In this document: positions 1,024-23,029 of the stretch, one piece after another
Position numbering within the stretch: the first letter of the stretch is position 1
Layout of the letters: each line of letters begins with the position of its first letter
Assembly (NCBI GenBank): GCA_965242865.1
Contig: CBDETK010000011.1
Span: 1-23,390 of the forward strand
From: Candidatus Latescibacterota bacterium
GTDB lineage: Bacteria; Latescibacterota; UBA2968; UBA8231
Direction of reading: 5' to 3'
Length of the DNA stretch: 23,390 nt
Notes under the pieces: generated by a model
Told to the model about the DNA's origin: nothing
Databases searched by the model: none
What the model saw: the letters and a program-made list of their open reading frames with translations, nothing else
Position numbers and translations under genes: made by a program

Positions 1024-1610
1024 ACCGCCTCCTCAAAAGGAATAATCCACGGCCCCCACCGGGTCGCGGTGCGCGGCAGGTCTAACGCCCTCGTATCCAA
1101 GCGCACGTCCATGGTCGTCGCCGGGGTGATCCCATCGCCCACCTTGCCAACAAACACCGGCACCGGGTTCACTTGCGTCGCCGCGGGTTGCGTCCCAAAC
1201 GCTTGTAACAAGCGGTCGCCCGCCGAGAAGAACTGGCCGTCTGCCAACGCAACAGCACGGGAGAGGGTTAGACGCCCGCTCTGAGCATCTATCGCACTAA
1301 TGGTGACAGACGGCACAGGGTTCTCAATCGTCCACAGACCCGCCAACGGAAGCTCCACCGTCAGGTCCCCGCCCCGCGTCTTACGCAGTAGCGCCGACAA
1401 CTGACTGGCCAGCCGGTTCGCCTCCGATTCCTGCTGATGGGCAAAGCTCATCCATGTCACCTCGCCCCGCCACGCCCCCGGCGCATAGTAGGCAAAAGAC
1501 TGTTGACCCGTGTATTCAGAGCGATGCGATTGCAGCCCGGGCTCCCACGGCAACAACGACACCGCCGTGATGCGGTTCGCCAACGCTTCGGGGATTTGTA
1601 TATCGGCCAT
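1020..1610 (-). CDS. Distal tail protein-like
   Basis: Immediately after the tape measure with TAATG coupling. 'S..TGQQ......WRG.V.W' N-terminal pattern and 'FEEAV' C-terminus are typical of Dit-like proteins. Confidence 0.6.
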   Translation of the reverse strand: MADIQIPEALANRITAVSLLPWEPGLQSHRSEYTGQQSFAYYAPGAWRGEVTWMSFAHQQESEANRLASQLSALLRKTRGGDLTVELPLAGLWTIENPVPSVTISAIDAQSGRLTLSRAVALADGQFFSAGDRLLQAFGTQPAATQVNPVPVFVGKVGDGITPATTMDVRLDTRALDLPRTATRWGPWIIPFEEAV

Positions 1611-4090
1611 TAGCGCCTCGTATCACGCGCTAACGAGTCAGAAATATCGATCATGTTCGGCAATATCTTTTGGTTAAACTCACGTATCAACGCCTCCCCA
1701 TCCCCGAAGCCTTCTATATGGAACGTGGGTTGGAAGTTTATTGTGGGCTTCCCTGCCGCCGCTTCCCGTATAAGCTCTTCGGCCAAGCCCGGCTGCACCG
1801 ACCCGATCCCCGTTGTGGGCGCACCTAATGCCGGCAGACCGCGCAACTGATTAAGGAGATCGAGGGAACGATCCGCCGCCGACGTCTCAAAGAGGAACGG
1901 CGTCGTCCGCGGGTTGAAGATACGCGCCATCAGCGGCTCAATAATCTTTAGGCGGATGACCAACAACGCCATCTGGCGAAGCATCTGGCGCAGCGCCTCC
2001 ACCACCGAACCCGGCCCGATGATAGCACTCGCAATGCCCTCAAACGCCCCCGTAAGGGTGCTACGCACCCGTGCGCCCGCCGCGGTCATACGCGCTAACT
2101 GTTCATTCGTCGCTTGCAGTGGGCCAGTCAAAAGCCCTAAGCGCAAGAGCGGGGCTATGTCGGGTCCGGTGAACGCCTCCGCACTCACCCGCTGGCTCAA
2201 GCGCACCGCCCGCGCCATGATGCGCGTGCTGCGATCGACCTCGTCGCCCGTCTTACCAATCGTACCCGGATAACAAGCCCCAGGCCCGTACGCAGATCCT
2301 CCAGCGTCGCCTGCCACGTCAGACTCAACACATTATTGACGCGCTCGGACTCGGCTTCGGTCACCCCAAAATAGTCCAGCGTCAGGTCGCGGGTGCTTCG
2401 GAAAAAATTGGGCGATCTGAGCCACATTCGCTTCCGCCTGTTTGCCGGTAACTCGTAATCCCGTTTCTAATTGCCCGGTAAACTCGTCAATCACCGTACT
2501 CAAACTCTCCCCGCGCAACCCCGCCGCAATCGCATCCACCAACGCGTTCCCCAACGAGTAGAACGAGCCGACAATAAGCGTCACCGCCGCATTGATGCTG
2601 TTGACTATGAAACTGGGTATCGTAGCAATAGCCGCCACCACATTAGCCACAAACCGAAGACCCAAGTTACGACCCAGTTCGCCCCACGTGACGTTTTGCT
2701 CCCGCAAGATACGCGACAGATTGAGGAACGCATCGATCAAAAGAATGACACCCTCAATAATAGCACCCACGAGCAGAGCACGAAAAGCAGCTTTTGCGGC
2801 GATACGCACCAGACCTAACGCCCGCGTCAAGAGGGACAACTGACGACGCATGGCGACCAAGCCGCGACGCACCCGCAACACCGCCGCCGCACCAAACGCC
2901 AACAGCAACGCACGGCCCGTCGCCGTGATCACACCCCGGAAGCGATCCAGATTGTCCGTCAATTGGTTGAAGAAGCCCGCAATGGACGAAAGGAAGTTGG
3001 TGAGCTCGGTGGTGACGCCGAACATCCTATCGACCGCCTGTACAAAGCCAAAGGCGGCCGACGCGGCTAAGCGCAGTTGCCCTATAAGCGTAGCATTGAG
3101 TAGGTCCGCCATCCGTTGGGCGGCCCCCGTGCCACCACGAATAGCCGTCGTCAAATCCTCCACCGAACGGACGTTGCGAATGAGTATCTCGGCAACGGAT
3201 GCGTTTTCTCTCCCAAAGATATTGAAGATTTCGGCGGAATCGATCCCCGACCGCCGCAGGTTCTCCAACACGGGTATCAAGCCCAACGACGCAACACTCA
3301 CGTCATCCAACGAGAGGCCCACCGACGCGAGCGACTGCGCCGCCGCGCCCGACGGGGCCGCCAGCGACGCCAAGAACCCGCGGAACCCGCGACCGGCGCG
3401 GGTGGCGAAAATACCGGCGTTACCTAAAGCACCAATCGCCGCCTCCGTGGTTTCAACATCGATACCAAATTGCCGAGCGATTGGCCCCACGTAGCTAAGG
3501 GCTTGAGTAAGTTCCTCAAAGTTGGTGTTGGCGCTATTCGTGGTTGTTACGAGTGTGTCCGTTATGCGCTCGGCATCGGCCACCGACAGACCAAACTGAT
3601 TGATTATGTTGGTGAGTTGATTGCCTACCTCGGCGGTGGTTGCGCCGCTGGCTGCCGCAAGGTTCAATGTAGCCGGGAGGAGTGAAAATTGCTCGTTGAC
3701 CGTGTTGCCCGCCCGGGCCAACTCAACCATCGCTTGGGCGGCCTCTGCAGCCGAAAAACGGGTATTTCTTCCTAAATCACGGGCCAGTTGGTCCAAACGC
3801 TGAAAGTCATTGCCGGTGGCATTCGTAATGCCCCGGACTAACGCCATACTCTGCTCGTACTCAGCCAGTTGGCGGATGACGCCGCCCAGCCCCGCCCCCG
3901 CGCCAAAGGCAGCTAACGCCGCAGCCGCACGTCTTGCAACGGAGTTGAAGCCAGAGAGTTCATTCCGTAGGGAACGCACACGGCGTTGGTGACGACGCAG
4001 TGCCACTTCGGCAGCGCGAGTTGAACGCAATAGCTCGCGGGTGCGGCCCGTGAAGTTTATGTATAAACTGCCCAGTCTAACGGAAGCCAT
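1610..4090 (-). CDS. Tail tape measure protein (TP901-type core), ~826 aa once two compensating indels near 2405 and 2268 are corrected
   Basis: 'TRFSAAEAAQAMVELARAG', 'SANTNFEELTQALSYVGPIA' and 'AIGALGNAGI' are core TMP motifs. ORFs 2333-4090 and 1610-2317 share a frame and are bridged by the helical-looking frame of ORF 2197-2427. Confidence 0.9.
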
Positions 4091-5082: not shown

Positions 5083-5289
5083 CTACCCCCCGGCCGGCGG
5101 CTCCTGCTCACTACGATAGATGCACTCCCGCACCCACTGAACCTGCCCATTCGGGCTTCGCGCCCCCACCTGCACCCAAACAGTCAAGTGGTTATCATAC
5201 GCCCCCGGCGACTCATATTCATACCCCGCCCCCTTCTGACTCAACCGAACAATACGATCAAACTCGGCCGCATTCAAACTGATGGACAT
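5083..5289 (-). CDS. Hypothetical 68-aa protein downstream of a solitary CRISPR-like repeat
   Basis: Strong GAGGAGG RBS and ATG start. Stop abuts the next gene. Confidence 0.7.
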   Translation of the reverse strand: MSISLNAAEFDRIVRLSQKGAGYEYESPGAYDNHLTVWVQVGARSPNGQVQWVRECIYRSEQEPPAGG

Positions 5290-5325: not shown

Positions 5326-5361
5326 GTTTCAATCCACTTCCGCCTTAGCCCGCGGAAGAAC
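5326..5361 (-). CRISPR. Solitary CRISPR-repeat-like unit 1 (type I-C-like; not an array)
   Basis: GTTCTTCCGCGGGCTAAGGCGGAAGTGGATTGAAAC: 36 nt, 7-bp stem CTTCCGC/GCGGAAG, then TGGATTGAAAC. Confidence 0.85.
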
Positions 5362-5378
5362 TGGGCTTGCAACACCCT

Positions 5379-5424
5379 AATATACGAAAGTTTTGGAGAA
5401 ACCACGCAAAACGCACAAAAAAAA
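5379..5424 (-). promoter_or_regulatory. Putative promoter driving repeat 1 and the 68-aa gene
   Basis: TTGCGT (5409-5404), 19-nt spacer, TATATT (5384-5379), and an upstream T8 tract resembling an UP element. The spacer is longer than optimal. Confidence 0.5.
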
Positions 5425-5505: not shown

Positions 5506-7881
5506 TCAGTTGATCTGGTACACGTCAAATGGCATGGCATCGGCCTGAACGTTGTCGCTCGCCAAGAGCAGGTCATTGCCCGCCGTCCTCCCCACGTAGT
5601 ACTCGTGGTAGGTGCGGTCGCCGCCCGCGGGGATTTGGAAGCGCACATAGCCGCTATGATCGGCATTGCGGTCGCCGCCCACCCGCGAGCTATTCTTCAT
5701 CGCCAACTCGTGACCGAACAGCACCTTCGCCTCCGCGCCCTCGCCGCCAAAGTTAATCAAGAAGATTTTAGACGCATAGTCGGAGGGCATAGACACGTTG
5801 GCATCGACGTAAGCCGATAGGCTTGTAATGTTGAGATTGTTCGCGTTGGGACTGAGCTTGACCACCCCCGGCGGTATCGTCGGCGTATTCTGAATATCGT
5901 CGTAATCGACCGGACGCTTAGCCGCAGGTATCTCGTCCGGGTTTCCTATTAGGGTCCACGGCTCCACGTTGGGCGTCAACCGCATCCACCCGGTCGGGGT
6001 ACGCATCGTCGCCGGCTGGTAGAGCCAGATATTCCTAAAATCGGCGGTCGAAGAGTATTCTCGCTCAAACCCTCTGTGATACTGAAGGATCGCGGCGATC
6101 TCGCGGCGCGTCGCCCGCGGCTGATGCGAGTAGTCGAGCGACGCAAGCGTGCCCGTTGCGCCCGCCACCGACTGGGTATTCCGCGAGAAAGACAGTTGAC
6201 CTAAGTTCGTCCACGTCTGATCGCCCACCCGACGGATACGTACATAGAACGTAGGGTTGACCGCCTGCGTGACGGCCATCGTGCGGATCGCAACCGTAAT
6301 ACTCTGATAGCGCGGGTCGCCGCCGTCGATAAAGCCCAGTGACCACGAGATGTCGAAGGGTTGACCGTCTGCCGCCGTGTTTTGGGCGATCGTACCATTG
6401 CCGCGCCAGTCCGCGTCTTTGGAAGCACCGTCCAGAATGACCGTGCCGCGACCGCGGTTCTCGACCGTCATCTCCTCGGTGGTCAGCCCAATGATATAGG
6501 GCGCGCCCACCGACGGCTCAACCAGTTGTATCGTTCCCTCCGCAACGCCCGTGGTGGCTGTGGGCGCATCCACGCTGTGAGGCAATATGACAAGCCCCCC
6601 GGCATTGCCGTGCGTCACAGCGCGGATGGCGGCCTCTAAGCCGCTAATAAAGCGGGCGGCGATGTCAATATGCTCCAGTTGGTCGGGGGCATCCCATTGC
6701 GCTTGCAATTTGGATGCCGCGGGGATGTCCGCGATCGGCAAGTTGTAGTACCAATAATGGTCGTCGTCACCCAAATAGGTTGCGCCCGTAGTGGCAATAA
6801 CGAGGGCCTCCGCCTCGTCGCCCGTGACCACCCGAAAGAGCGCCAAGTCGTCTGTCGAAGGCTGTATTTCGTAGAGCGTCTTGGGAACGCGGAAAGCAAT
6901 GTTCTTGCCCGTCTCACGCGCCGCCACCGTCCGCGTGGCGGTGTACGTGGCCGCCTTCGCGGTCGCCTCCGTATAGGCATCGTCCGCTATGGGCGACAAC
7001 CACAGGCCATCCTCAGCGCGCCACGAGCCATCGACCACATCGTCGTTCAGTCGCTCAAGATTAGGCAGGGCCGACCGGATCGCCGCGACCGCATCGGCGG
7101 ACGTGAACGGCGGCGACGCCGCCGGAATATCCGGGCGGTTGTCTATATCCGTGTTCCAATCCCAATTCTGACCGCCCAACTCAGCCTTGTCCTTGACGTG
7201 GCTTCGTATCAGCGCGACCACCGCGGCGGCGTCTAATGAGGCCCCATTACCGCCCCCGCCCTGCCCCGTCGGCAAGTGGGAGGCCAAGATGATGCTATCA
7301 CTGGACGGCGCACGAGTGCCGAACAGGAACGCATAGACCGCTTCCTGATAGTCCCGCGCTTGGTCGTTGGCCTCTTGGCGCACCGTGGCAAACGTTAAAA
7401 TATCATCAGTGAACGCCACATCCGACGGCAAGTTCTCGCGCCGTATCGGCACGATATGGCCGTCGTCATACCGCTGCGCCCAGTCCTGCACATGCCGCAA
7501 AAACTGTTGAAACACCGGGCTGGTGGAGCTATGCGGGGGAGCCAATACGTTATCGGTGGTTTCGTGCAAATGGATGTCGTCCAAAAAACGAATGGTTCGG
7601 CTCCATACCGCCACCTCGCCCACGTTCGGCTCGGTGTTCATAATGGTCACCCTATAGTAATGACCCGCGGGCGTAGTCTCCAAAAAGATGTCGAGCATCC
7701 CCTGCGCGTTGGTACGCCCCGAAAAGCTCGTGGGCACCACCACGCCGGTCGCGGCGTTCACCCACCGCGCCGTCTCGCCGGTACGACCATACTGATCGAC
7801 CGCCTCAACCCGTACCAACTGGTACGGCAACACGCCCAAGTCAAGGTCTAACGTGCTTACATGTAATGCGTGAAGTGCCAT
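5506..7881 (-). CDS. Tail fibre / virion appendage protein
   Basis: 791 aa. N-terminal beta adaptor-like domain ('RTNAQGMLDIFL...YYRVTI'), fibre hinge-like motifs 'WNTDIDNRPDIP' and 'YDDIQNTPTIP', and modular beta domains. Confidence 0.6.
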   Translation of the reverse strand: MALHALHVSTLDLDLGVLPYQLVRVEAVDQYGRTGETARWVNAATGVVVPTSFSGRTNAQGMLDIFLETTPAGHYYRVTIMNTEPNVGEVAVWSRTIRFLDDIHLHETTDNVLAPPHSSTSPVFQQFLRHVQDWAQRYDDGHIVPIRRENLPSDVAFTDDILTFATVRQEANDQARDYQEAVYAFLFGTRAPSSDSIILASHLPTGQGGGGNGASLDAAAVVALIRSHVKDKAELGGQNWDWNTDIDNRPDIPAASPPFTSADAVAAIRSALPNLERLNDDVVDGSWRAEDGLWLSPIADDAYTEATAKAATYTATRTVAARETGKNIAFRVPKTLYEIQPSTDDLALFRVVTGDEAEALVIATTGATYLGDDDHYWYYNLPIADIPAASKLQAQWDAPDQLEHIDIAARFISGLEAAIRAVTHGNAGGLVILPHSVDAPTATTGVAEGTIQLVEPSVGAPYIIGLTTEEMTVENRGRGTVILDGASKDADWRGNGTIAQNTAADGQPFDISWSLGFIDGGDPRYQSITVAIRTMAVTQAVNPTFYVRIRRVGDQTWTNLGQLSFSRNTQSVAGATGTLASLDYSHQPRATRREIAAILQYHRGFEREYSSTADFRNIWLYQPATMRTPTGWMRLTPNVEPWTLIGNPDEIPAAKRPVDYDDIQNTPTIPPGVVKLSPNANNLNITSLSAYVDANVSMPSDYASKIFLINFGGEGAEAKVLFGHELAMKNSSRVGGDRNADHSGYVRFQIPAGGDRTYHEYYVGRTAGNDLLLASDNVQADAMPFDVYQIN

Positions 7882-7887
7882 TTCAAC

Positions 7888-8364
7888 TTACCCGCTCTGG
7901 CTTATCAGCCGTTGTTGCAAACGATTCAATTGTCCCTGTTCAATCTTGCGGAATGATCGGGACATACGCGCCGAGATGATGTTGAACAACTGCCCTTGGG
8001 TCTCAATGATAGCCCGTCGTAGGTAGGAACGCGCATCGCGCCGCTGCCGCGGGCGGATACCGTACTCCACAAAGACGGCATGACGCGCCCCCGGGCCGCC
8101 ACTGGTCACCCGCGCCCCCGCGCCCGGCACCCGCCGGACCCCGCGGTCGGTCAACACCCGCTCCGAGATGCGACGCGCCTTGATGCTGCGCCGCAACGCA
8201 CCACTCTTAACCGGCACCACGGTCTTAGCGCGGGTCGCCACCGCCCCCGCCGCCGCACGAAAGCCATCGCCCTGCACACGCTCCGCCAGCAGCACCGGCA
8301 ACGCACGAAGGCCCTGCCGTATCTCGGCCAGACCGCGGCTATCCACTTCCAGATTAATCATCAA
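7888..8364 (-). CDS. HK97 gp10-like tail component
   Basis: 'AKTVVPVKSGALRRSI', 'HAVFVEYG' and 'ARSYLRRAI' motifs. Confidence 0.85.
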   Translation of the reverse strand: MMINLEVDSRGLAEIRQGLRALPVLLAERVQGDGFRAAAGAVATRAKTVVPVKSGALRRSIKARRISERVLTDRGVRRVPGAGARVTSGGPGARHAVFVEYGIRPRQRRDARSYLRRAIIETQGQLFNIISARMSRSFRKIEQGQLNRLQQRLISQSG

Positions 8365-8965
8365 GCGTTAAGAGTACTTCGGCTTTTCGCCGCGCACGGA
8401 TAGACCGTAGCGTCCAGCCGCGCAAATATTTCAGGTTTTTGCCGTCGGCCGCATCCACATTCTCAGCCACCAGATGCTCAAAATAGTGAAACTGATCCAG
8501 TTCCCCCAAACCGCGTTCCCCGCGTTCCTCGAAAATATCACTCACGGCGGCTAAGGTCCCCGGCCCGTAGAAGCCATCGGCAAAGCCGGGCGCAAGCGAC
8601 CCATCGAAATCCATGCACACCTGCTGCAACGCCCGCATAGCCCGCCGCGGCGACCGGGCACACATCTGCGAATACTGAAACTGTAGATGCGCCGGCACCT
8701 TATCGAGATGAAACTGAGTGTAATACTTTTCGTAAAACGCATCCAAGTGTTCACGCAACGCCTCCGCCACCTCGTCCGAGTCCAAGTCCGTACCATCCAA
8801 CTTATAGCCGTCGATCAAGACCCAGCCCGACCAGTCGGCGTTATGAACGCGGGAAACGCCCGAATAGGTTTCACCGCCAGAATCATCGGGATCGTTGACA
8901 TAACGCCCTTCCTCGTCAATGGTCTGGTCCACGATTGCCTTGAGAACTTTTTCGTCAATACTCAT
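8354..8965 (-). CDS. Endolysin, glycoside hydrolase family 108
   Basis: 'EEGRYVNDPDDSGGETYSGVS' catalytic motif, 'DGFYGPGTL', and C-terminal 'KYLRGWTLR' peptidoglycan-binding-type motif. AGGAGAGG RBS. Confidence 0.88.
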   Translation of the reverse strand: MSIDEKVLKAIVDQTIDEEGRYVNDPDDSGGETYSGVSRVHNADWSGWVLIDGYKLDGTDLDSDEVAEALREHLDAFYEKYYTQFHLDKVPAHLQFQYSQMCARSPRRAMRALQQVCMDFDGSLAPGFADGFYGPGTLAAVSDIFEERGERGLGELDQFHYFEHLVAENVDAADGKNLKYLRGWTLRSIRARRKAEVLLTLDD

Positions 8966-8975
8966 GATCCTCTCC

Positions 8976-11900
8976 TTATAACGTTACTTGGTACGTGCGG
9001 CTCCGCGCATAGATGCGCCGATCGCGCACGATACCCACTTCGTCAAAAAGCCCATCGGACAGTTGCAAGCGTTTCGTCTCGTTGAGCGACGCCAGCAACA
9101 GTTTATCCAAGTCCGTCACCTCCTGCATCGTCCCGGCCCGCGCAATGACGCGCACCTGGTGCGCCGTGTCCTTACCCTGCTTCAGCCCCGGCTCATACAG
9201 GTTACCCGTCACTTGGTAGTAAATGGCCGGCACCGGACTGTCACTGCGTTCCCGCTGGGCGCTGATACGCTGCGTCCCTTCCTCGTCGTCCTGATAGACC
9301 ACCGAGTCTAAGTCCAAAAGCACCGGCTCGACGCGCACGGGCGGCTCCAACGTTTCGCCTTCCGTCTCGGTGCGGTACGCCGTGAGGACGCGCCGCGCTA
9401 TCTCGACAATGATCTCAATCGGGTCCATACGCCGTCCGCGCAAGGTAGAGGGTATCTGTATGACCGCCCCGCCCGGCGGCTGGGGAGGCTGAGTAGGGCT
9501 ACGAACAATGAACACGCGAACACCTCCCATCGTTACTTGATCCGCCGTGAAGAGGACCTTTGCGCCAGCGCGACCTATCGCTACTACGTTCACATCCCGC
9601 ACGTCCGCGCCAGCCACACGCAACGTATCAACATGTAAATTAGTTAAACCGAATACAATAGGCAAGACCTCAACACGCCCTATGCGGGCGCGCGGCGGGC
9701 GCATGAACGTTTTTTGAGCAGCCAGCTCAGTAGTAAGGTCGACTACCCGGGGCTTGCCCACATCGAGCTTGGGCAGACGCCTAAAGATGCGCTGTCGGAG
9801 GCGCGGCACCCCGGGCGCAACGCCCCCCATCACCGTCGCAGGGAACGGCATGAACACGTGCCTGTGACGGCGTAGGGCTGGCTGCGCCAGCTTGATTTTG
9901 CCCAGCCTTGTTACATCGGGACGCCACGCCACCGGCGGCGTCTGCAAGGTCAGGAGTGGGCGACGCGCGACCACCCCGCCCATAGACACCGCCTGCGGAC
10001 GCCACACGGTGAACGGCTGTAAGCGATGGGAAACATCCGCGACCGCAACAGGGCCTATCGTCATCGCGGCGAGCGTCAACGGGATCGACGGAGCAACCCG
10101 CGTCACCCCATCGGCCGCCACGGCGATAGCCCCCACGCGCACCCGGCGGGGCGTCAACATGAACGTGCTATGACGAGTATCAAGGGGCGTGTCGGCCACC
10201 GACACCGCCCCGATCAAGCGACGGGCAAGCGTCAGGGAGGCCACGCCCCTATTCGTAATCGCGGCATCCTCTACATCGACGCCGCCCACCCGCAAGCGCG
10301 GCAAGCGCCCCAACGAGACCGAGACGACCGGGATAGTAGTAGCGGCATCCGCCACATCGACGCCACCCACCCGCAAGCGAGCGACGGGCAACGCCTGCTG
10401 CCCCACCGCTACCTGCGTCGGCAACCGCCTAACATCAATGCCGTCTATCTGCACATGCCCCAGCGTCAGGGACACCGCGGGCTTGACCTGCAACGTCGTA
10501 AGATCGGTTACATCAAGACCGCTTATATCGCTCACACGCTTAAGGGATAGGCTCGTAGCGGGCTTGACCTGCAACGTCGTAAGATCAGATACATCAAGAC
10601 CGCTTATATCGACTTGCGCGGGAGACAGGACCGTCGAAGGCTTGACCTGCAACGTCGTAAGATCGGTTACATCCAGACCGCTTATATCAACACGCTCAAG
10701 GGGTAGGTTCGTAGCGGGCTTGACTTGCAACGTGGTAAGATCCGTTACATCAAGACCGCCTATATCGACTTGCGCGGGAGACAGGACCGTCGAAGGCTTG
10801 ACCTGCAACGTCGTAAGATCGGTTACATCCAGACCGCCTATATCGACGCGCTTGGGTCGTAAGGCCAATGGCGGCACCACGATACGCAAGGGCGCATCAT
10901 GCGCTTCAACCCTACCCGTCTTGATGCGGGGCGGGGCCATGGTCTGGGCGGGCGTTATGTTCAACGGGCGGGCCTCATGCACCTCAAGGCCACCCACACG
11001 GAGCCGTGCCAGCGCCAGGCGCTGGGCCGGCGTCACCCGCAACGTCGTAGCATCGGACACCGCCAACGCGCCCACGTCCGTCTGCGGCAATGACAGCGCC
11101 ACGAGGGGATGGGTGACCGCGGTGGTCAGCGGCTGGCTATCCACCGGGCCAACCAGCACCGGTGCCAACGCGAGCGTCTGTGCCGGGATGGCAACCAACG
11201 CCGTCGGGTCGGCCACGCGCACCGGGCCGACAGACCGCCGCGTCAAGCGCAGGGCGACCGCGGGCGTTACATTCGTAGTAGGCGCATCGCCAATAGACAG
11301 GCCGCCCACCTCAACCCGCGTCAGCGTCAGGGCGAGCCGATCATGCCGCACGCGCAACGACGCATCGCCGCTCTCTATCTGCCCGATCGTCACCCGCTCG
11401 GGGGTCATGGATACCGCCGGCGTAACCCGGGTGCTACGCAGGTCGCGCACATCCGCGCCACCCACATCGACCCGCGACAGCGACAAGGACACGGCGGGCG
11501 TTACATTCGTAGTAGGGGCGTCCCGCGTAGCCTGTATGCCCCCTATATCGACCGTGGGGCAGCTGGAGCGGTATGATAGGCCCGACCGCTCGCAACAACG
11601 ACGGCGCGACCGCAACAGGCCCTACATCCGTCTCAGGGGTACGGAACGATGTTTGGGGCGTTACCGTGGCCAGCTCGCTACGCGCCTTGACCCGCCCCAG
11701 GGCGGTACGAGGCAACGACAGAGACACCACGGGCGTTACCGTCAAATGCGTCGCATCGCCAATCGCCACCCGCCCCACGTCCAAGCGGCGCGGCAACAGG
11801 CTTGCGGCCGGCGTCACATTCGTAGTGGGCGCATCGCCAATCGCCAACCCACCCACATCGACACGCTCCGCCCGCAAGACGACCGCCGGGATGACGCGCA

Positions 11901-13638
11901 TAGGCTGCGGATCGGCTATCGCCAGCCCCCCCACATCGACGCGCTCAAGGGGCAGCGGCCGCTGCGGCGCCACGGGCGTCAGCCCCCCATCCGCCACCGC
12001 CACGCCACCCAACGAGAGGCGCGCTACCCGCGCCGACACCGCCGGCGTTACATTCGTCGTAGGCGCATCGCCAATAGACAAGCCGCCCACGCGCAAGCGC
12101 GCCGGGCGAGCCGTCACATAGGGACGCTCCGCCGTCAACGACGCATCCGTCAACTCTATCTGCCCGATAGACACCCGGGCGGGCGTCAGCACCTGCGCGG
12201 GCGTCCTGTTCACGCTCGACGGATCCCGCGCATCGACACCGCCTATATCCGTCTGCGGTAACAACAGCGGCTGCCGCTCAATCGCTAACGCCGTAATAGC
12301 ATCGGCCACCGCCAACCCCCCCATAGCGGTCGGCGGTAGCGACAACGGTAGCCGCAGCTTAGTGCGGGGGGCTTGCGGCTGGACGCCCCCCACCGCCACC
12401 CGGTCGGGCGTCAGGACCGTGGCAACAGTAACCCCCCCCAACGAGGCATCCGACACCGACAGACCACCCACCGCCGTCCGCGGCAACGACAACGGCTGCT
12501 TGGGAAGCAACGCCGTCGTAGCATCCGACACCGCCAACCCACCCACAACCGTCCGCGGCAACGACCACGACACCGCCGGCGTCACAGCCACATGCGTAGC
12601 ATCCGACACCGCCAACCCACCCACAGAAGTCGTCGGCAACAAGAACGACACCTGCGGCGTCACCTTCGTCGTAGCATCCGCTACCGACAAACCACCTACA
12701 TCTAACTGAGAAAGAGAAAGCTCAACGCCCGAACTGACCGCGCCATAAAAACCTCTGAAATTGACACGGGTGAAGCTGCCAATGGTAGGCAGTTCGCCTA
12801 CCAGCGTCGTTGTGTGCGGTGTGTTGTACTGTGGGGACCGGGCAAACGTGATCTGATGGACCGCCGGCGTCGGACGGTCGTCGGACAAAATAGCGTATAA
12901 GGTAGTGCCGTCCGTGAACAGTCGAGGGCTATCTAATCGTATCTCACCATAGCTGACATGATTGTTAAGATTAGAAAGGGAAGCACGGCTAAGTCTAGAT
13001 CTGGAACTCGACTGATAAGCCGAGAAATAGAGATACGAACCCAACTTGACACCCGAACCAAAAGGACGGGGAGCACTGCTGCTGCTCCTTCTAGAAAAGC
13101 CAACACGGCGGATAGCCCAGTTCGTCCCGGTAGCCGAACACGTGAGCTCGTATAAATCGTAATCCCAACTGTTATACGTAGGGCCATCCGAGTCAGTGGT
13201 CCTATCATGCGTCAACCGAAAGAGATAATAGCTACGACTATTATTGTATATGATAGGCCCACGAAAGCTGTATTGTACCGTACGGTGATACCGTACACGA
13301 CCATAAATATCGCGCCCATAGCTCTGGCTTATATTCTGTGGTAGGATGTTGTTATACTCGGTGGCGTTGCTGGCAATCAGTCCGCCCAAGGGGTCGTTGA
13401 TAACCCATAGGCTGCGGTTGGCAATCGTCAGGATGCGCGGCGTGTCGTTGCCACTGGCATCGGGAACCATCCCCAACGCAAACCAGCCACCAATCGTCGG
13501 GCGCGACGTATTCTCCCAAGAGGCCCCCGATAGCTTGGCCGACGACAAGGGCGGGTCAATCGTAAGGAGCTCCCCGCGTTCACTGCCGCCAGCATCCCTT
13601 CTAGCACCATCTATATTGCGAAACAGAAACTTAGCCAT
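8976..13638 (-). CDS. Giant (~1,553 aa) repeat fibre-like protein with C-terminal tail-terminator-like domain; one +1 frameshift at ~11557
   Basis: ORFs 11434-13638 and 8976-11615 carry the same ~26-aa repeat. Removing one base from GGGG at 11556-11559 restores the register 'LQLPTVDIGG'. Confidence 0.75.
9500..12720 (-). repeat. Coding tandem repeat, ~78 bp / 26 aa, roughly 40 units
   Basis: Consensus approx. LxLxRVDVGGLxVxDAxTxVTPAVS. Five near-identical DNA units at ~10480-10850. Boundaries are approximate. Confidence 0.9.
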
Positions 13639-15183: not shown

Positions 15184-15753
15184 TTAGTCTAACGCGGCGT
15201 GAAGGGGACGCAACGGCCCCAACAGCCGATCCAGCGCACGAAAATCATTCGGCAGGCCCCCGCCGTTGTATAGCTGCCGCACCAGCAAGACCAACGCCTG
15301 CGCCAGCACCGTATCTTTGGGGCGACGACCCAGCGTCAACCCGAGGGTCACATTCAGACGCCAGCGCAGATCCCGAGCATGGGCCGGCCACCCGGCCGGC
15401 GGCGCGTTCACGACAACAACATCCGTCGTCGGCGTCACCGTCGTCTCCACATCACCCCAATCATCCGTTTCAATCCACTCTCCCTCCGAAGAAGGAGAGA
15501 AATACGCGATGCTCTGAAGACTCTTGAACCCTCGCGCCTCAAACACAAGCGCATTCATCGCGCCCATGGGCGGGTTCGTCGAAAGAACACTCGGCCTATC
15601 CACCAGCGGGTAGTCTATGCTCGCCTCGACCCACCCCACCGCCGACGCCAACTGCTCTAACAGAAGCGTATCGTGGTAGGTCTCATCCACCGCTAAACGC
15701 AATTCTAAGCGCAAGCGATCTAACGAGCATATATCGGTAGGCTGAGCGACCAT
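15184..15753 (-). CDS. Head-tail connector (HK97 gp6-like, long form)
   Basis: 'SLDRLRLELRL...DTLL..QL.SA...VE' and 'QALVLLVRQLYN...LLGPLR'. Confidence 0.85.
   Translation of the reverse strand: MVAQPTDICSLDRLRLELRLAVDETYHDTLLLEQLASAVGWVEASIDYPLVDRPSVLSTNPPMGAMNALVFEARGFKSLQSIAYFSPSSEGEWIETDDWGDVETTVTPTTDVVVVNAPPAGWPAHARDLRWRLNVTLGLTLGRRPKDTVLAQALVLLVRQLYNGGGLPNDFRALDRLLGPLRPLHAALD
15467..15502 (-). CRISPR. Solitary CRISPR-repeat-like unit 3, inside the connector CDS
   Basis: TTTCTCTCCTTCTTCGGAGGGAGAGTGGATTGAAAC: stem at positions 4-25 (9 bp, TTCG loop) and the identical 3' tail. Confidence 0.75.
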
Positions 15754-15759
15754 TTGGCG

Positions 15760-16173
15760 TTAGGAGCGCGTAGGCTTGGGCTTGGGACGCTTAGCGTCGC
15801 GGGTCTCCACCTCGACGCCCTGCCGACGCGCAAGCTCGACCAATTTTCGTGGCGTATCTCGATGCGCCAACAGACCCACGTCATGGATTCGCAACAAATT
15901 AACCAGCATCTCTTCCTCCGTTTCTTGGCGCACCGCCAGACCGCGCGACACCATATCGTCCACCTCAGAGGCCGGCACCAGCACTAACTGACCGCGCTTA
16001 TACGGACAGCCCCCCGGGGCCACCCAATGGGTACGAAGGCGCACCCGCTCCAGCGGAATATCCTCCTTGCGCTTCTCACCCTCCAAGCGGTGCTCCTCCA
16101 GCTTGGCGCACGCTTCTTGGTGGCGACGCTCTTTCTCACGCGCCGCCGCCAACGCCATCGTCATCGTAGGCAT
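15760..16173 (-). CDS. Post-capsid hypothetical protein
   Basis: GAGGAGAGGGG RBS. 'YKRGQLVLVP..EVDDMVSRGLAV' resembles small domains often encoded after HK97-like capsid genes. Confidence 0.65.
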   Translation of the reverse strand: MPTMTMALAAAREKERRHQEACAKLEEHRLEGEKRKEDIPLERVRLRTHWVAPGGCPYKRGQLVLVPASEVDDMVSRGLAVRQETEEEMLVNLLRIHDVGLLAHRDTPRKLVELARRQGVEVETRDAKRPKPKPTRS

Positions 16174-16188: not shown

Positions 16189-16224
16189 GTTTCAATCCAC
16201 TCCCGACTTAGCCCTCGGGAGAAC
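16189..16224 (-). CRISPR. Solitary CRISPR-repeat-like unit 2
   Basis: GTTCTCCCGAGGGCTAAGTCGGGAGTGGATTGAAAC, 32/36 identical to unit 1, starting 16 nt after the capsid stop. Confidence 0.85.
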
Positions 16225-16240
16225 TGGGCTTACGCCCGCC

Positions 16241-17710
16241 CTACTGCGCCTTGATCTTCAGTTTGACGATCGCCTCACAAACCGCGCCGTCTTTGACGCC
16301 GATATACCGCCCGTCCAAGCGAGCAAACGCAACGACTTTCTCCGAAAAGTTGGACGCCGTGCCGCTATCCCAGAAGCGGAAGAACAACATGCCGTTGACC
16401 ATACGCTCCATGTAATAGCTGCCATTGCCAAAGACCAGCGGGTACGTGTTATCCCCCACGTCATCCATGTTCGGATTCAACTGGTACGGATAGCCCAAGA
16501 TCGTGCCCGGCGTACCATCCCGAAGGCTCGGCAACCAGATCGGATTATCCTGCGTGTCCTTGATCTTCGTCACGGTCTTGAGCGCATCGTAACTCATGCC
16601 CCAACCAATACGTCCCCCTTCCTCGGTCGTAAAGCCGTACATGGGGTCCTCGCGCCCTTCCTTGTAAGCCGGATCGATCGCGTAGACCATATCAACGATG
16701 TCGTCAAAGCCAATCGTGCGCGACGCCGCACTCGTCAGCCCCTCTTTCGCGCCCGTGACCAACCCCTCCGGCTTCGTATCCGCCGCACCCGCCGCCGTGG
16801 TGACCGTCAACTCCTTGTTCTTCAAGCGAGCAATACGCGCCAAGCAGATGTCCTGCATCTCGGGGATACCGCCATTCTCCAAGATGGTATCCGTCTCAAA
16901 CTCCATCGTGATCGGGATGAAATCGGACGTATAGGTGTGCGCCTTCAGGACCAGCGTAGTGATGTTCGGCGCATCCACATCGTTGATAGCCGAACCCTCC
17001 GCCGACAAGCGACGACCCATCTGAGCGGTCGGATCCATCTGCATAATGCGGATGTCTTGCCCGGTCTCCGTAACACGCGTCCGAACAAAGCTGCCCCACC
17101 CGCCAAAAGCCTTCAGACGGTGTACCAGCCAGTTGGGATACTGAACGGCAATCGACTCTTGCCCCGTAGCCGCATCGCCCGCCACCAACCCCACCAGCGG
17201 AACGCGCGTAGCCGCCACCACAGGCGCCTTCACAAACAAGGGCGTCGGCGACTTCCACTGCGTGCTCTGCCACCCCTCAAGGTCGCTCCCATGCAGCTTG
17301 TGAAACTCGGCCATGCTCTCCTCAGACGACTGCAACCCCTCGTCCCGAAGACCGCCCCCCTGCGACATCTTGCCCGCAAAATAGTTCTTCCAACGCATAC
17401 TATCATGCGTTCGCAGCGCCATCGGATCGGGCAACCGATTCTCAGGACGCAACCGCTCCAACGCATCCAAGTCGCCGCGCAAGCTGTCCAACCGACGACC
17501 GAGGAACCCGTGCTCGTAGTGCAGAGCAAGATGCTTCTCCGCCATCCCCTCCACCGCACCGCCCTCAAACTTGATGCGCTTCTCGCGGTTCATGTCGTTC
17601 AACTTCTCGGTGACGTCGTCATACTCGGCCCGAACTTTGGCCTCCTCCGTCAACGTCTCATCGAACGTCTTTTTGTCCCACTTGCTAAAGCGGGATTTGG
17701 GAACTGTCAT
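16241..17710 (-). CDS. Major capsid protein, HK97 fold
   Basis: N-terminal coiled-coil delta domain, 'KIKDTQDNPIWLPSLRDGTPGTILGYPY', 'LVFGN' and 'FARLDG'. Start set at ATG 17710 (GGAGG RBS, TAATG coupling). Confidence 0.95.
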   Translation of the reverse strand: MTVPKSRFSKWDKKTFDETLTEEAKVRAEYDDVTEKLNDMNREKRIKFEGGAVEGMAEKHLALHYEHGFLGRRLDSLRGDLDALERLRPENRLPDPMALRTHDSMRWKNYFAGKMSQGGGLRDEGLQSSEESMAEFHKLHGSDLEGWQSTQWKSPTPLFVKAPVVAATRVPLVGLVAGDAATGQESIAVQYPNWLVHRLKAFGGWGSFVRTRVTETGQDIRIMQMDPTAQMGRRLSAEGSAINDVDAPNITTLVLKAHTYTSDFIPITMEFETDTILENGGIPEMQDICLARIARLKNKELTVTTAAGAADTKPEGLVTGAKEGLTSAASRTIGFDDIVDMVYAIDPAYKEGREDPMYGFTTEEGGRIGWGMSYDALKTVTKIKDTQDNPIWLPSLRDGTPGTILGYPYQLNPNMDDVGDNTYPLVFGNGSYYMERMVNGMLFFRFWDSGTASNFSEKVVAFARLDGRYIGVKDGAVCEAIVKLKIKAQ

Positions 17711-18480
17711 TATAAGAACCTCCATTCGCCGGCGTTATCGCCGTATAGGTTATAATACTGCATCATCTGTTCCTGCCGAACCCTCTCCGCCTCAGCCCGC
17801 AACGTGCTTTCTGATTCCTCCCCCGGCTCGTCGATCGCGACCTCAATCACCCTATCGGCCAACCCCACCTCCACCGCCTCTTCCGCGCTATACCACGTCT
17901 CCTCACGAAGCGCCGCCTGCACCTCCTCCAACGAGGAGTTGGTCATGCGCTTCGCATACAAGCCCGCGACCTCGTCGTTCATCTTCCGAGCGGTATCGAC
18001 GATCTTTTGGACGGCCTCCACGTCGCCGCGCAAAACCAACTGCGCGCCGTGAATCATCACCGAGGTCATAGCCGAAAGAGCGATGTCGCTGCCCGTTATC
18101 ATAATGAGCGAAGCGGCACTCGCGGCCATGCCATCGACCTGCACGTTGACCTTATCGCCCTTCTTCTTGCGCTCGCTGATCAGGTTCAGGATCGCACTCG
18201 TTTCAAAAATGTCCCCGCCCGGCGAGTTGATCCGAATGAGCACGTCCCCCGTAATCGCGTCAAGCTGCTCTTGGAAAATTTGGGCCGACATCACCGAATC
18301 ATCGCCCCACCAAGCGCGGAGGAATTCGGCATCGGCATGATTCATGATTTCTCCATAGAGAAGTATTTCATTATCACGATCACGAGCGAGACTCACCTTC
18401 GCGGGCTGATACTTCGCCCAGACATCGGGCGAGATGTTGCTGAACCGACGACGAAGTAAAGCCTTTAGTTTCTTGTCCAT
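17710..18480 (-). CDS. ClpP-type prohead maturation protease
   Basis: 'RINSPGGD', 'DGMAASAAS', 'MIHG' and 'ETWYSAEEAVEVGLAD'. Confidence 0.95.
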   Translation of the reverse strand: MDKKLKALLRRRFSNISPDVWAKYQPAKVSLARDRDNEILLYGEIMNHADAEFLRAWWGDDSVMSAQIFQEQLDAITGDVLIRINSPGGDIFETSAILNLISERKKKGDKVNVQVDGMAASAASLIMITGSDIALSAMTSVMIHGAQLVLRGDVEAVQKIVDTARKMNDEVAGLYAKRMTNSSLEEVQAALREETWYSAEEAVEVGLADRVIEVAIDEPGEESESTLRAEAERVRQEQMMQYYNLYGDNAGEWRFL

Positions 18481-22950: not shown

Positions 22951-23029
22951 TGGAGCGCGAGGCGGGACTCGAACCCGCGACCGCGGACTTGGCAAGCCCG
23001 TACTCTACACCAAACTGAGCTACTCGCGC
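22951..23029 (-). tRNA. tRNA-Gly(GCC)
   Basis: GCGCGAG/CTCGCGC acceptor stem, U discriminator plus CCA, TAGCTCAG D arm, CGGGC-TTGCCAA-GTCCG anticodon arm and GGTTCGAGTCC T arm. Confidence 0.95.

Follow-up and report, generated by a model that had tools for sequence, protein, structure and literature searches.

Phage-encoded sequences that resemble host CRISPR repeats have been described in several forms. Racrs are, in the available text of the report describing them, co-transcribed with neighbouring genes, RacrIC1 being bicistronic with acrIC5 (Camara-Wilpert et al. 2023, PMC10651486). Cracrs, as far as the accessible part of that study goes, are repeat-like phage units, some of them multiplexed and including nine type I-C two-spacer arrays, for which the criterion is a pseudo-spacer matching the promoter of a host cas or toxin gene at 9 or more positions proximal to the protospacer-adjacent motif (PAM) (Liu et al., bioRxiv 10.1101/2024.10.29.618823). 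The published type I-C repeat consists of a stem followed by an 11-nt 3′ overhang starting UGG and, in the portion of the source available, Cas5c recognition falls on the base of the stem and the opening nucleotides of the handle, not on the loop or the 5′ overhang (PMC8524198); in the I-C Cascade structure, likewise available in part, Cas5c remains on the 5′ handle of the downstream product, with Cas5c and Cas7.7 clamping the handle (PMC7684278). Hairpins formed between leader and repeat are on record for type II-A systems (Liao et al. 2022, as cited in the accessible text of PMC13187072). Here we describe type I-C repeat mimics on a 23,390-nt phage contig assembled together with a Candidatus Latescibacterota bacterium (GenBank assembly GCA_965242865.1, contig CBDETK010000011.1; the whole stretch is referred to as the window), two of which, units a and b, carry a 7-nt 5′ extension complementary to the repeat loop, with which it may form the second helix of an H-type pseudoknot.

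Probable pairing between the 5′ extension and the repeat loop

The two units (Table 1) read, on the minus strand, gcAAGCCCA-GTT-CTTCCGC-GGGCTAAG-GCGGAAG-TGGATTGAAAC (unit a, 5368-5326) and gtAAGCCCA-GTT-CTCCCGA-GGGCTAAG-TCGGGAG-TGGATTGAAAC (unit b, 16231-16189), each comprising a 7-bp hairpin, an 8-nt loop and an 11-nt tail, and extension plus unit amounting to 43 nt. An earlier reading of the letters alone (the sequence-only reading) had noted an identical AAGCCCA 5′ of both units, at 5368-5362 and 16231-16225, the complementarity of its AGCCC to the loop, and an order of elements fitting an H-type pseudoknot, i.e. a helix S1, a 4-nt loop L1, a 7-bp helix S2, no nucleotides in L2, the S1 3′ strand, a 3-nt L3 and the S2 3′ strand. 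These observations are borne out: the coordinates are right when the minus strand is read, AGCCC is fully complementary to the loop's first five bases, GGGCU, and the layout matches the sequence. Units a and b are identical at 39 of 43 positions, the four differences forming two compensatory pairs in S2; given this paralogy, the shared 7 nt alone cannot tell selection from duplication. The handle is matched with 0 mismatches at only three places in the window (5326, 15467 and 16189). Units a and b are solitary there, with no second repeat within about 100 bp, and the handle-match scan of the window found no two repeats parted by a spacer of host length.

Further copies are present on two contigs of the same assembly, one of 28 kb (C4; L067) that is 92-99% identical to the window contig (C11) in collinear blocks, and one of 12 kb (C2; L068) that overlaps both; judged by their sequences, the two are strain variants, or else additional pieces of one phage population. 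Counting all loop types, there are at least 3 phage units on C11, 9 on C4 and 7 on C2. A pattern comprising the loop GGGSTRA, the S2 3′ strand and the handle, with the extension left unspecified, retrieved 12 units from the assembly (2 on C11, 6 on C4 and 4 on C2), the gap-free alignment of which contains 9 distinct sequences, and it is these that were used for the pair counts. The units fall into two classes, the first with a, b and b2, and the second with d, e, u7, u8 and u9.

In a single fixed register, the 9 distinct rows show pairing in all 45 cells of S1 (alignment columns 10-14 with 26-30). Three of its pairs are invariant, one varies on one side by wobble (C-G/U-G), and one varies on both sides (GC in five rows, CG in three, UG in one), such that the loop GGGCU goes with AGCC(C/U) and the loop GGGGU with A(C/U)CCU; in the second class S1 is AGCCUG:CGGGCU or ACCCUG:CGGGGU. 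S2 (columns 19-24 with 35-40) is paired in 54 of 54 cells, with two pairs changed on both sides, so that the new helix is about as well supported as the accepted hairpin; taken together, the five S1 and six S2 pairs are intact in 99 of 99 cells, with the helices in crossing order. None of 500 column shuffles matched the observed covariation score or percentage paired, and when the partners were moved by 1 to 3 columns only 37-56% of the cells paired. Columns 10, 12 and 13 are invariant, and the flanking columns 1-9 and 15-17 are without any invariant position; the diverged flanks around a conserved 5-nt core argue that the core is an island of constraint and not merely the end of a recent duplication.

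The nucleotide between the two helices is also accommodated in both classes. In a, b and b2, where column 15 cannot pair, column 25 is partnered by column 34 (C-G or A-U); in the second class, where column 34 is mismatched, column 15 is G and pairs with C25. Column 25 therefore has exactly one partner in 9 of 9 rows, and S1 and S2 add up to 12 bp in each class, divided as 5 and 7 bp in the first and as 6 and 6 bp in the second. U-G wobbles occur at 14:26 in 5 of 9 rows and at 11:29 in one of 9; since U-G would be A-C on the other strand (T-G in DNA), these argue for a constraint on the sense RNA.

Of 20,000 12-mers taken from the contig, 1.25% match GGGCU by chance if the register is fixed and 14% if any register is allowed; at the latter rate a single match is worthless, and the evidence lies in the consistency across copies. 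Pairing at the fixed register is present in all 12 units with a GGGSU-type loop and in none of the 7 units with other loops, and the ends of the host array spacers, when set against the GU-rich loop of that array, pair somewhere in 21 of 37 cases and at a fixed register in 0 of 37. The history of the sequences may be estimated as about five paralogue lineages, with one two-sided event, two wobble transitions and no disruptive change. Covariation, which the sequence-only reading had wished to see across homologous phages, was looked for among the paralogues and strain variants of the sibling contigs; S1 covaries there, which is not the pattern that reading associated with mere duplication. We regard the covariation as suggestive, not as proof, and consider it likely that the extension-loop pairing itself is real.

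Whether both helices form at once is a matter for energetics and sterics. The ViennaRNA energy of the S2 hairpin is -12.1 kcal/mol in unit a and -12.2 kcal/mol in unit b, and that of the 6-bp S2 of the second class about -4.6 to -8.2 kcal/mol; the S1 strands give -6.3 to -10.0 kcal/mol as a duplex, and as a hairpin S1 gives -7.5 kcal/mol in a and b and -7.3 to -7.7 kcal/mol in the second class. In nested folding, which is all that ViennaRNA and RNAalifold score (i.e. not pseudoknots), S2 is picked in 3 of 9 rows (a, the a of C4, and b) and S1 in 2 of 9 (d and u8), from which it follows that S1 is no marginal interaction and that the two helices might also act as a switch. Sterics were considered on an idealised, quasi-continuous A-form helix built from fibre parameters, with groove widths of 16.9 Å (minor) and 10.0 Å (major) as a check and a reach of about 6.5-7 Å per extended nucleotide. 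In this model L1 bridges 16.3 Å over 4 links and L3 18.8 Å over 3 links in the first class, and in the second class L1 bridges 12.3 Å over 3 links and L3 21.8 Å over 4 links, such that an H-type pseudoknot appears sterically possible in both. Of the pseudoknot put forward in the sequence-only reading, the pairing, which is conserved and compensated, thus stands, and the loops may permit both helices; the joint formation of S1 and S2 is a prediction only. Unit b offers its extension a further partner, an upstream GGGC, with which it can give a GGGC-GUAA-GCCC tetraloop hairpin (16227-16238, minus strand) that nested folding prefers; this GUAA-capped alternative is not conserved among the other units.

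Host Cas5c and readings of the module

The 5.6-Mb chromosome of the same assembly (C13) carries a type I-C operon, cas3-cas5c-cas8c-cas7-cas4-cas1-cas2, adjoining a CRISPR array, and its Cas5c is the sole Cas5c family match in the assembly. The repeat of this array ends in ...GAGGGGAGCGGAUUGAAAC (also given as ...TCTCCCCTTGCTTTGGTGAGGGGAGCGGATTGAAAC). The phage units have a stem of 6-7 bp followed by UGGAUUGAAAC, which is the same as the host repeat at 10 of 11 handle positions, and the lower stem C-U-C-C/G-G-A-G is common to both; the units are thus type I-C repeat mimics, the tail being the future 11-nt 5′ handle. On sequence comparison, they keep exactly the features that Cas5c reportedly reads, and vary or re-use those that it does not. 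The one differing handle position is the first, which is U in all 19 phage units (UGGAUUGA...) and C in the co-assembled chromosomal array (CGGAUUGAAAC); it adjoins the scissile bond, and the C-to-U change is present even in the phage's near-copy of the host repeat. The array of a relative (L075) has a terminal repeat with U at the handle start, and the cognate host may be a neighbouring strain. No phage-encoded Cas5c or Cas6 was seen among the 25 + 12 phage open reading frames (ORFs) scanned with Pfam and PHROGs.

The best explanation, which we judge to be probable by a small measure, is that the 43 nt constitute a phage RNA module with compatible S1 and S2, acting as a Cas5c-processed decoy or site, with S1 as a stabilising cap. 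The extension would then be an integral, selected part of the module, its 7 nt being added to the 36-nt mimic such that the parts reportedly not read by Cas5c, namely loop and 5′ overhang, are turned into the second helix; S1 would stack on S2 to give a 12-bp H-type pseudoknot. The module would be transcribed as part of a polycistronic phage mRNA (unit b) or just behind a promoter-like motif (unit a), and a cognate I-C Cas5c would cut it at the 3′ base of S2, after G5337 and G16200, the predicted sites being between 5337 and 5336 in unit a and between 16200 and 16199 in unit b, as placed from the available description of Cas5c (PMC8524198). The downstream RNA, with its 11-nt handle, would tie up Cas5c and Cas7 as a Racr-like decoy; in the variant on C4, cleavage may instead mature a phage-borne CRISPR RNA (crRNA). 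The pseudoknot could lock a modest hairpin in the correct register within a long GC-rich mRNA, and could give the upstream product a compact, exonuclease-resistant end. The sequence-only reading had offered three functions, i.e. stabilising the RNA, trapping the nuclease and switching cleavage; of these, trapping of the nuclease appears the least likely, because in the accessible text of the two sources Cas5c recognition lies outside the loop and 5′ overhang (PMC8524198) and Cas5c stays on the downstream handle (PMC7684278).

Doubt about this decoy or site, as we read it, lies mostly in its function and in the simultaneous folding of the two helices, and several observations weigh against it. 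The nested minimum-energy fold of units d and u8 is the S1 hairpin, which fits a switch equally well, and the 3-nt L3 in a and b is nearly taut, at 6.3 Å per link. With U in place of C at the handle start, the Cas5c of this chromosome may not be the cognate enzyme. A strict sigma-70 scan upstream of unit a gave no consensus match, and among the 4 sequencing runs of one study that carry the module none is an RNA run, all being DNA. Every copy derives from a single assembly, on contigs that are close relatives, and the covariation rests on one two-sided event and two wobble transitions. A pattern search of IMG/VR gave 0 matches, and then 1 chance match within a coding region; the JGI metagenomes gave 15 loci, all without the upstream stem or GATTGAAA; one genome per GTDB species gave 4 loci, none convincing; 75 genomes of the same order gave 0 matches by unit pattern; a covariance model run on same-order genomes found ordinary arrays only, at 30 bits or less compared with 58 or more for the 12 units; and INPHARED held no match to the unit DNA. 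There being no such unit outside the assembly in the databases searched, independent phylogenetic replication is lacking.

Other readings of the same nucleotides have to be set against the stabilised decoy or site. It may be that S1 and S2 are alternative hairpins of a switch, with S1 opening the top of S2 and so lowering Cas5c processing, and with translation of the upstream gene, or another factor, setting which fold forms. Such a switch would suit the extended S1 hairpin that is the nested minimum-energy fold of d and u8 (S1 can be extended to 7-8 bp in d, e and u8), the second-class S1, which as a hairpin (-7.3 to -7.7 kcal/mol) is about as stable as S2, the change of partner at column 25 between the classes, and the stop codons 5-18 nt before the extension, presumably within reach of a terminating ribosome. 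In a and b, however, S2 (-12.1 and -12.2 kcal/mol) is far stabler than the S1 hairpin (-7.5 kcal/mol), so that S1 alone would rarely win, and the two helices share no nucleotide in the counted register and are sterically compatible; covariation cannot separate knot from switch, and we consider the switch unlikely. A related proposal concerns function more than fold, i.e. that the phage has its own polycistronic mRNAs matured by the host Cas5c. Intercistronic cassettes of 36-43 nt, with one handle and differing stems, would be the cutting sites that yield monocistronic pieces, and the form with the pseudoknot cap would leave the upstream message, e.g. the capsid mRNA, with a nuclease-resistant 3′ end. 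We give this proposal a low probability; if true, it would make the virus dependent on an immune enzyme of its host and provide engineered Csy4/Cas6 operon insulators with a counterpart in nature.

The extension could also be a passenger, the 5′ end of a duplicated segment whose complementarity to the loop is coincidental and functionless. The near identity of a and b (39 of 43), the tandem duplication on C4 of a 76-nt block that includes the extension, the 14% chance of a 5-bp match at any register and the restriction to one assembly are all as expected for a passenger. By contrast, the core changes solely in ways that keep its pairs, in one case on both sides, and does so between columns without an invariant position; pairing is kept in 12 of 12 units with GGGSU loops and is found in 0 of 7 others; and the four differences between a and b are all compensatory, indicating selection on the module, such that a passenger seems improbable. 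Masking of the handle, in which the extension would pair with the handle start (CCA:UGG or AAGCC:GGAUU) and close the hairpin from below, has a precedent in type II-A and type VI systems, where leader-repeat hairpins keep the first repeat from being processed (PMC13187072, on its available text). It also has some basis in the alignment, as the nested RNAalifold consensus adds the pairs 13:43, 14:42 and 15:41 between extension and handle UGG, with 15:41 paired in 11 of 12 rows, and columns 9-13 pair with 42-46 in 77.8% of cells. Against this, no pair of the extension-handle helix changes on both sides (the handle being invariant), its central pair 11:44 is unpaired in 8 of 9 rows, it offers 3 bp, or 4 bp with a mismatch, compared with 5-6 perfect pairs for S1, and the covarying column 11 follows loop column 29, not the handle; masking is thus very improbable. 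The least credible reading, to which we attach next to no weight, takes AGCCC-N11-GGGCT as a DNA-level element, either an inverted-repeat site for a dimeric protein of phage or host or a recombination site at cassette borders. Contigs from the DNA runs do have joints at 16231 and 16188, and a variant skips 5327-5396, but repeated 31-mers may have produced these joints in the assembly graph, the T-G 'pairs' (14:26 in 5 of 9 rows, 11:29 in one of 9) are not palindromic in DNA, and the half-site variants AGCC../..GGCT and ACCC../..GGGT coexist on C2, which one protein specificity does not explain.

Phage setting and arrangement of the units

The window is the entire contig C11 of a 13-contig, 6.0-Mb assembly and, by Pfam and PHROGs scans of its ORFs, is a phage structural module with all genes on the minus strand; these encode HNH, large terminase (TerL), portal, ClpP-type protease, capsid, GH108 lysin, HK97 gp10-like and tape measure proteins. 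Relatives of the capsid protein were found neither in IMG/VR nor in the order, and the best INPHARED matches have 27-31% identity. Units a and b are intergenic, and unit c lies within an ORF (Table 1). The extension of unit b starts 9 nt past the capsid stop codon TAG (16243-16241), and an ATG preceded by GAGAGGAGAGGGG lies 15 nt downstream of the unit; more generally, the upstream ORF stops 5-18 nt ahead of the module in units b, e, d, u8 and u9, and a start codon follows the handle by 2-36 nt in units a, b and d. The motif upstream of unit a is present at four phage sites, and it may function as a promoter. In u7 the upstream ORF (C2 2386-2859) runs into the unit, with its TGA inside the unit's loop.

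Table 1. Coordinates of the repeat mimics and of features close to them.
Feature	Coordinates	Strand	Remarks
Unit a, 5′ extension AAGCCCA	5368-5362	minus	S1 5′ strand AGCCC, 5367-5363; alignment columns 9-15
Unit a, 36-nt type I-C-like repeat mimic	5326..5361	minus	handle and lower stem common to host array A
Unit a, L1	A5362 and GUU overhang 5361-5359	minus	
Unit a, S2	5358-5352 and 5343-5337	minus	5′ strand CUUCCGC, 3′ strand GCGGAAG
Unit a, loop GGGCUAAG	5351-5344	minus	S1 3′ strand GGGCU, 5351-5347; L3 AAG, 5346-5344
Unit a, 11-nt handle UGGAUUGAAAC	5336-5326	minus	
Unit b, 5′ extension AAGCCCA	16231-16225	minus	S1 5′ strand AGCCC, 16230-16226
Unit b, 36-nt repeat mimic	16189..16224	minus	
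Unit b, S2	16221-16215 and 16206-16200	minus	5′ strand CUCCCGA, 3′ strand UCGGGAG
Unit b, loop	16214-16210 and 16209-16207	minus	GGGCU and AAG
Unit b, handle	16199-16189	minus	
Unit c	15467..15502	minus	handle as in a and b, other stem and loop, no extension; in frame within ORF 15184-15753
Promoter-like motif TTCGTATATTAG	5377..5388	minus	8 nt upstream of the unit a extension
68-aa ORF	5083..5289	minus	36 nt after unit a; opens the gene block that runs to the tape measure gene
Tape measure gene	2333-4090	minus	
Major capsid gene	16241..17725	minus	Phage_capsid PF05065, E 1.5e-18; directly upstream of unit b
137-aa ORF	15760..16173	minus	directly downstream of unit b; no family match
Degenerate solitary repeat (host cas operon)	L065 about 1970-2023 = C13 about 3527369-3527422	minus	

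Units with the extension are either solitary or the first of a pair, and never stand behind a unit without it; the pair types are e then f, u7, u8 or u9 abutting a g-type unit, and a then a host-like repeat, and several of the C4 and C2 units are paired, not solitary. The 76-nt cassette 5401-5326, i.e. motif, extension and unit a, recurs at C4 12325-12400 with 93% identity, where it heads a three-repeat, two-spacer mini-array (12358-12540; whole element 12325-12590, plus strand). The order of that element is motif, extension, unit a, spacer 1, a host-like repeat differing from that of the host by 1 mismatch, spacer 2, a truncated repeat and a hairpin that, with its T-run, resembles a terminator, and its spacers are 36 and 35 nt long, compared with 35-38 nt in host array A. 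Spacer 1 resembles a gene family of the phage itself (31/36 on C11 845-880, 30/36 on C2 and C4), with mismatches at spacer positions 1, 3 and 6 and a flank of GGA, not TTC; given these mismatches and this flank, its real target is not among C11, C2 and C4. Spacer 2 had no match in the assembly. Elsewhere on C4, an entire block of 76 nt, extension included, is present twice in tandem (units b and b2).

At three places (C2 2836-2914 and 3677-3755; L067 5506-5584) two units adjoin without a spacer, one of them bearing the extension and a degenerate handle (UGGAUUGAGUC/A); it is possible that cutting of both would release a 36-nt handle-plus-hairpin RNA, i.e. a minimal decoy. Contigs from four DNA runs of one study include a variant without unit a, which skips 5327-5396, and have joints exactly at 16231 and 16188, both edges of the 43-nt module b; these joints may be real cassette borders, or assembly-graph effects at repeated 31-mers. 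The same contigs have two copies of unit c parted by differing inserts of 24-36 nt, and arrays with the unit c repeat may thus exist in those samples, in phage or host, unless these too are assembly-graph effects. The ORF containing unit c is a real coding region and reads ...FSPSSEGEWIET... across the unit; the differences between C11 and C4 on either side are mostly at third codon positions.

Traces of such units are also found on the host side. The fifth spacer of the host array (L065 92-127; C13 3525526-3525491, minus strand) ends in GTTTCAATCCACTCTG, the reverse complement of the phage-type handle and stem base, 16 nt of which are identical to C2 302-317 (unit f); a spacer carrying the reverse complement of the handle means that a unit-bearing phage has probably been sampled by the host lineage. 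The host spacers gave no match to C11, C4 or C2 except to the handle itself, and spacers A33-A35 match other small contigs (C9, C12 and C6). Between the host cas4 and cas1 there is a degenerate solitary repeat, TCTCCTCTTGCTTGGGTGAGGGAAACGGATTGAAAC, with a second partial handle copy, which may be a host regulatory or processing unit within the cas operon. A solitary CCTCCCCAAGGGGAG-TGGATTGAAAC unit in a genome of the same genus (G031; L074, about 1478-1513, minus strand) may be another solitary repeat unit; the 3-kb locus has no further handle copy beside it.

Other features of the phage contigs are recorded here for completeness. A tRNA gene (Rfam RF00005, 63.7 bits) lies at 22954-23029 of the window, on the minus strand, between the HNH/terminase region and the contig end, and was the sole match at gathering score in an Rfam scan of the window, which gave no CRISPR-DR match; the best CRISPR-DR score on the strand of the unit was that of CRISPR-DR9, at 16.8 bits compared with a gathering score of 45. 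Direct repeats of 75-81 nt (about 26 codons) at about 10190-12730, in the overlapping ORFs 8976-11615 and 11434-13638, probably encode a repetitive fibre-like or decoration protein, and the corresponding end of C4 has a 2192-codon ORF (5737-12315, minus strand).

Relation to described systems

Classical H-type pseudoknots have the order S1-L1-S2-S1′-L3-S2′, and the Cas12a repeat has a protein-bound pseudoknot. The module has the classical order, with an L2 of 0 nt and the potential for coaxial stacking, and differs in that its L3 is unusually short, at 3-4 nt. The word pseudoknot is absent from the available text of both the Racr (PMC10651486) and the leader-repeat (PMC13187072) papers, and, going by titles and the beginnings of abstracts, no relevant literature on a pseudoknotted type I repeat or Racr was found among the matches listed; nor was there relevant literature, among the matches listed, on intercistronic phage CRISPR repeats in mRNA processing. 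Racrs, viral crRNA-like RNAs, virus-borne mini-arrays and leader-repeat hairpins are all known; what appears new is a type I repeat mimic with an added 5′ segment that is conserved, covaries and pairs with the mimic's loop, although the supplementary tables of the Racr and Cracr studies may list similar units.

As in the leader-repeat hairpins described for type VI-B2 (PMC13187072, on the part available), sequence upstream of a repeat pairs with the repeat RNA. Those hairpins, however, mask the repeat and block its processing, whereas the phage extension pairs with the loop only and leaves the stem base and handle free; moreover, the phage pairing crosses the repeat stem, i.e. has the topology of a pseudoknot, and is encoded by the phage. 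The mini-array on C4 is like the virus-borne mini-CRISPR arrays of Medvedeva et al. 2019 (PMC6858448, accessible in part); units a and b of the window differ from these in being solitary.

Repeat-like units are common to the Cracrs (bioRxiv 10.1101/2024.10.29.618823, as available) and the phage described here, the difference being that no pseudo-spacer match to the cas locus was found. In a comparison of the 36 nt after each of the 19 units with the chromosome (9-nt seeds), the matches were scattered background, with none in the cas locus (3.5254-3.5365 Mb), and the best pseudo-spacer match to the chromosome was 25/36, with no TTC flank; with no pseudo-spacer behind the 19 units matching the host cas locus, a Cracr reading is unsupported.

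The closest relatives are the Racrs and other solitary repeat units, including RacrIC1, which, according to the available text, are likewise phage-encoded and non-coding, and have a host-repeat-like sequence with a hairpin (Camara-Wilpert et al. 2023, PMC10651486). Compared with these, the phage units add a conserved 5′ extension that pairs with the loop, occur many to a genome with differing stems, and stand between structural and early genes, not beside a recognised acr gene; inhibition by them is only putative. If the helix is only a passenger, the finding shrinks to one more Racr-like unit. The phage and its host would nonetheless be a rich test bed for RNA-level counter-defence, given the many I-C mimics in one phage, the mini-array that re-uses the first unit and the host spacer with the reverse complement of the handle. 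If the stabilised decoy or site is correct, the module would offer a 43-nt natural design for Cas5c-processable, structurally insulated RNA cassettes. So far, descriptions of Racrs are of simple repeat copies; a mimic that makes its own tertiary fold from nucleotides ignored by the enzyme would mean that phages engineer Racr-like RNAs further, the possible gains being in stability, folding fidelity or control.

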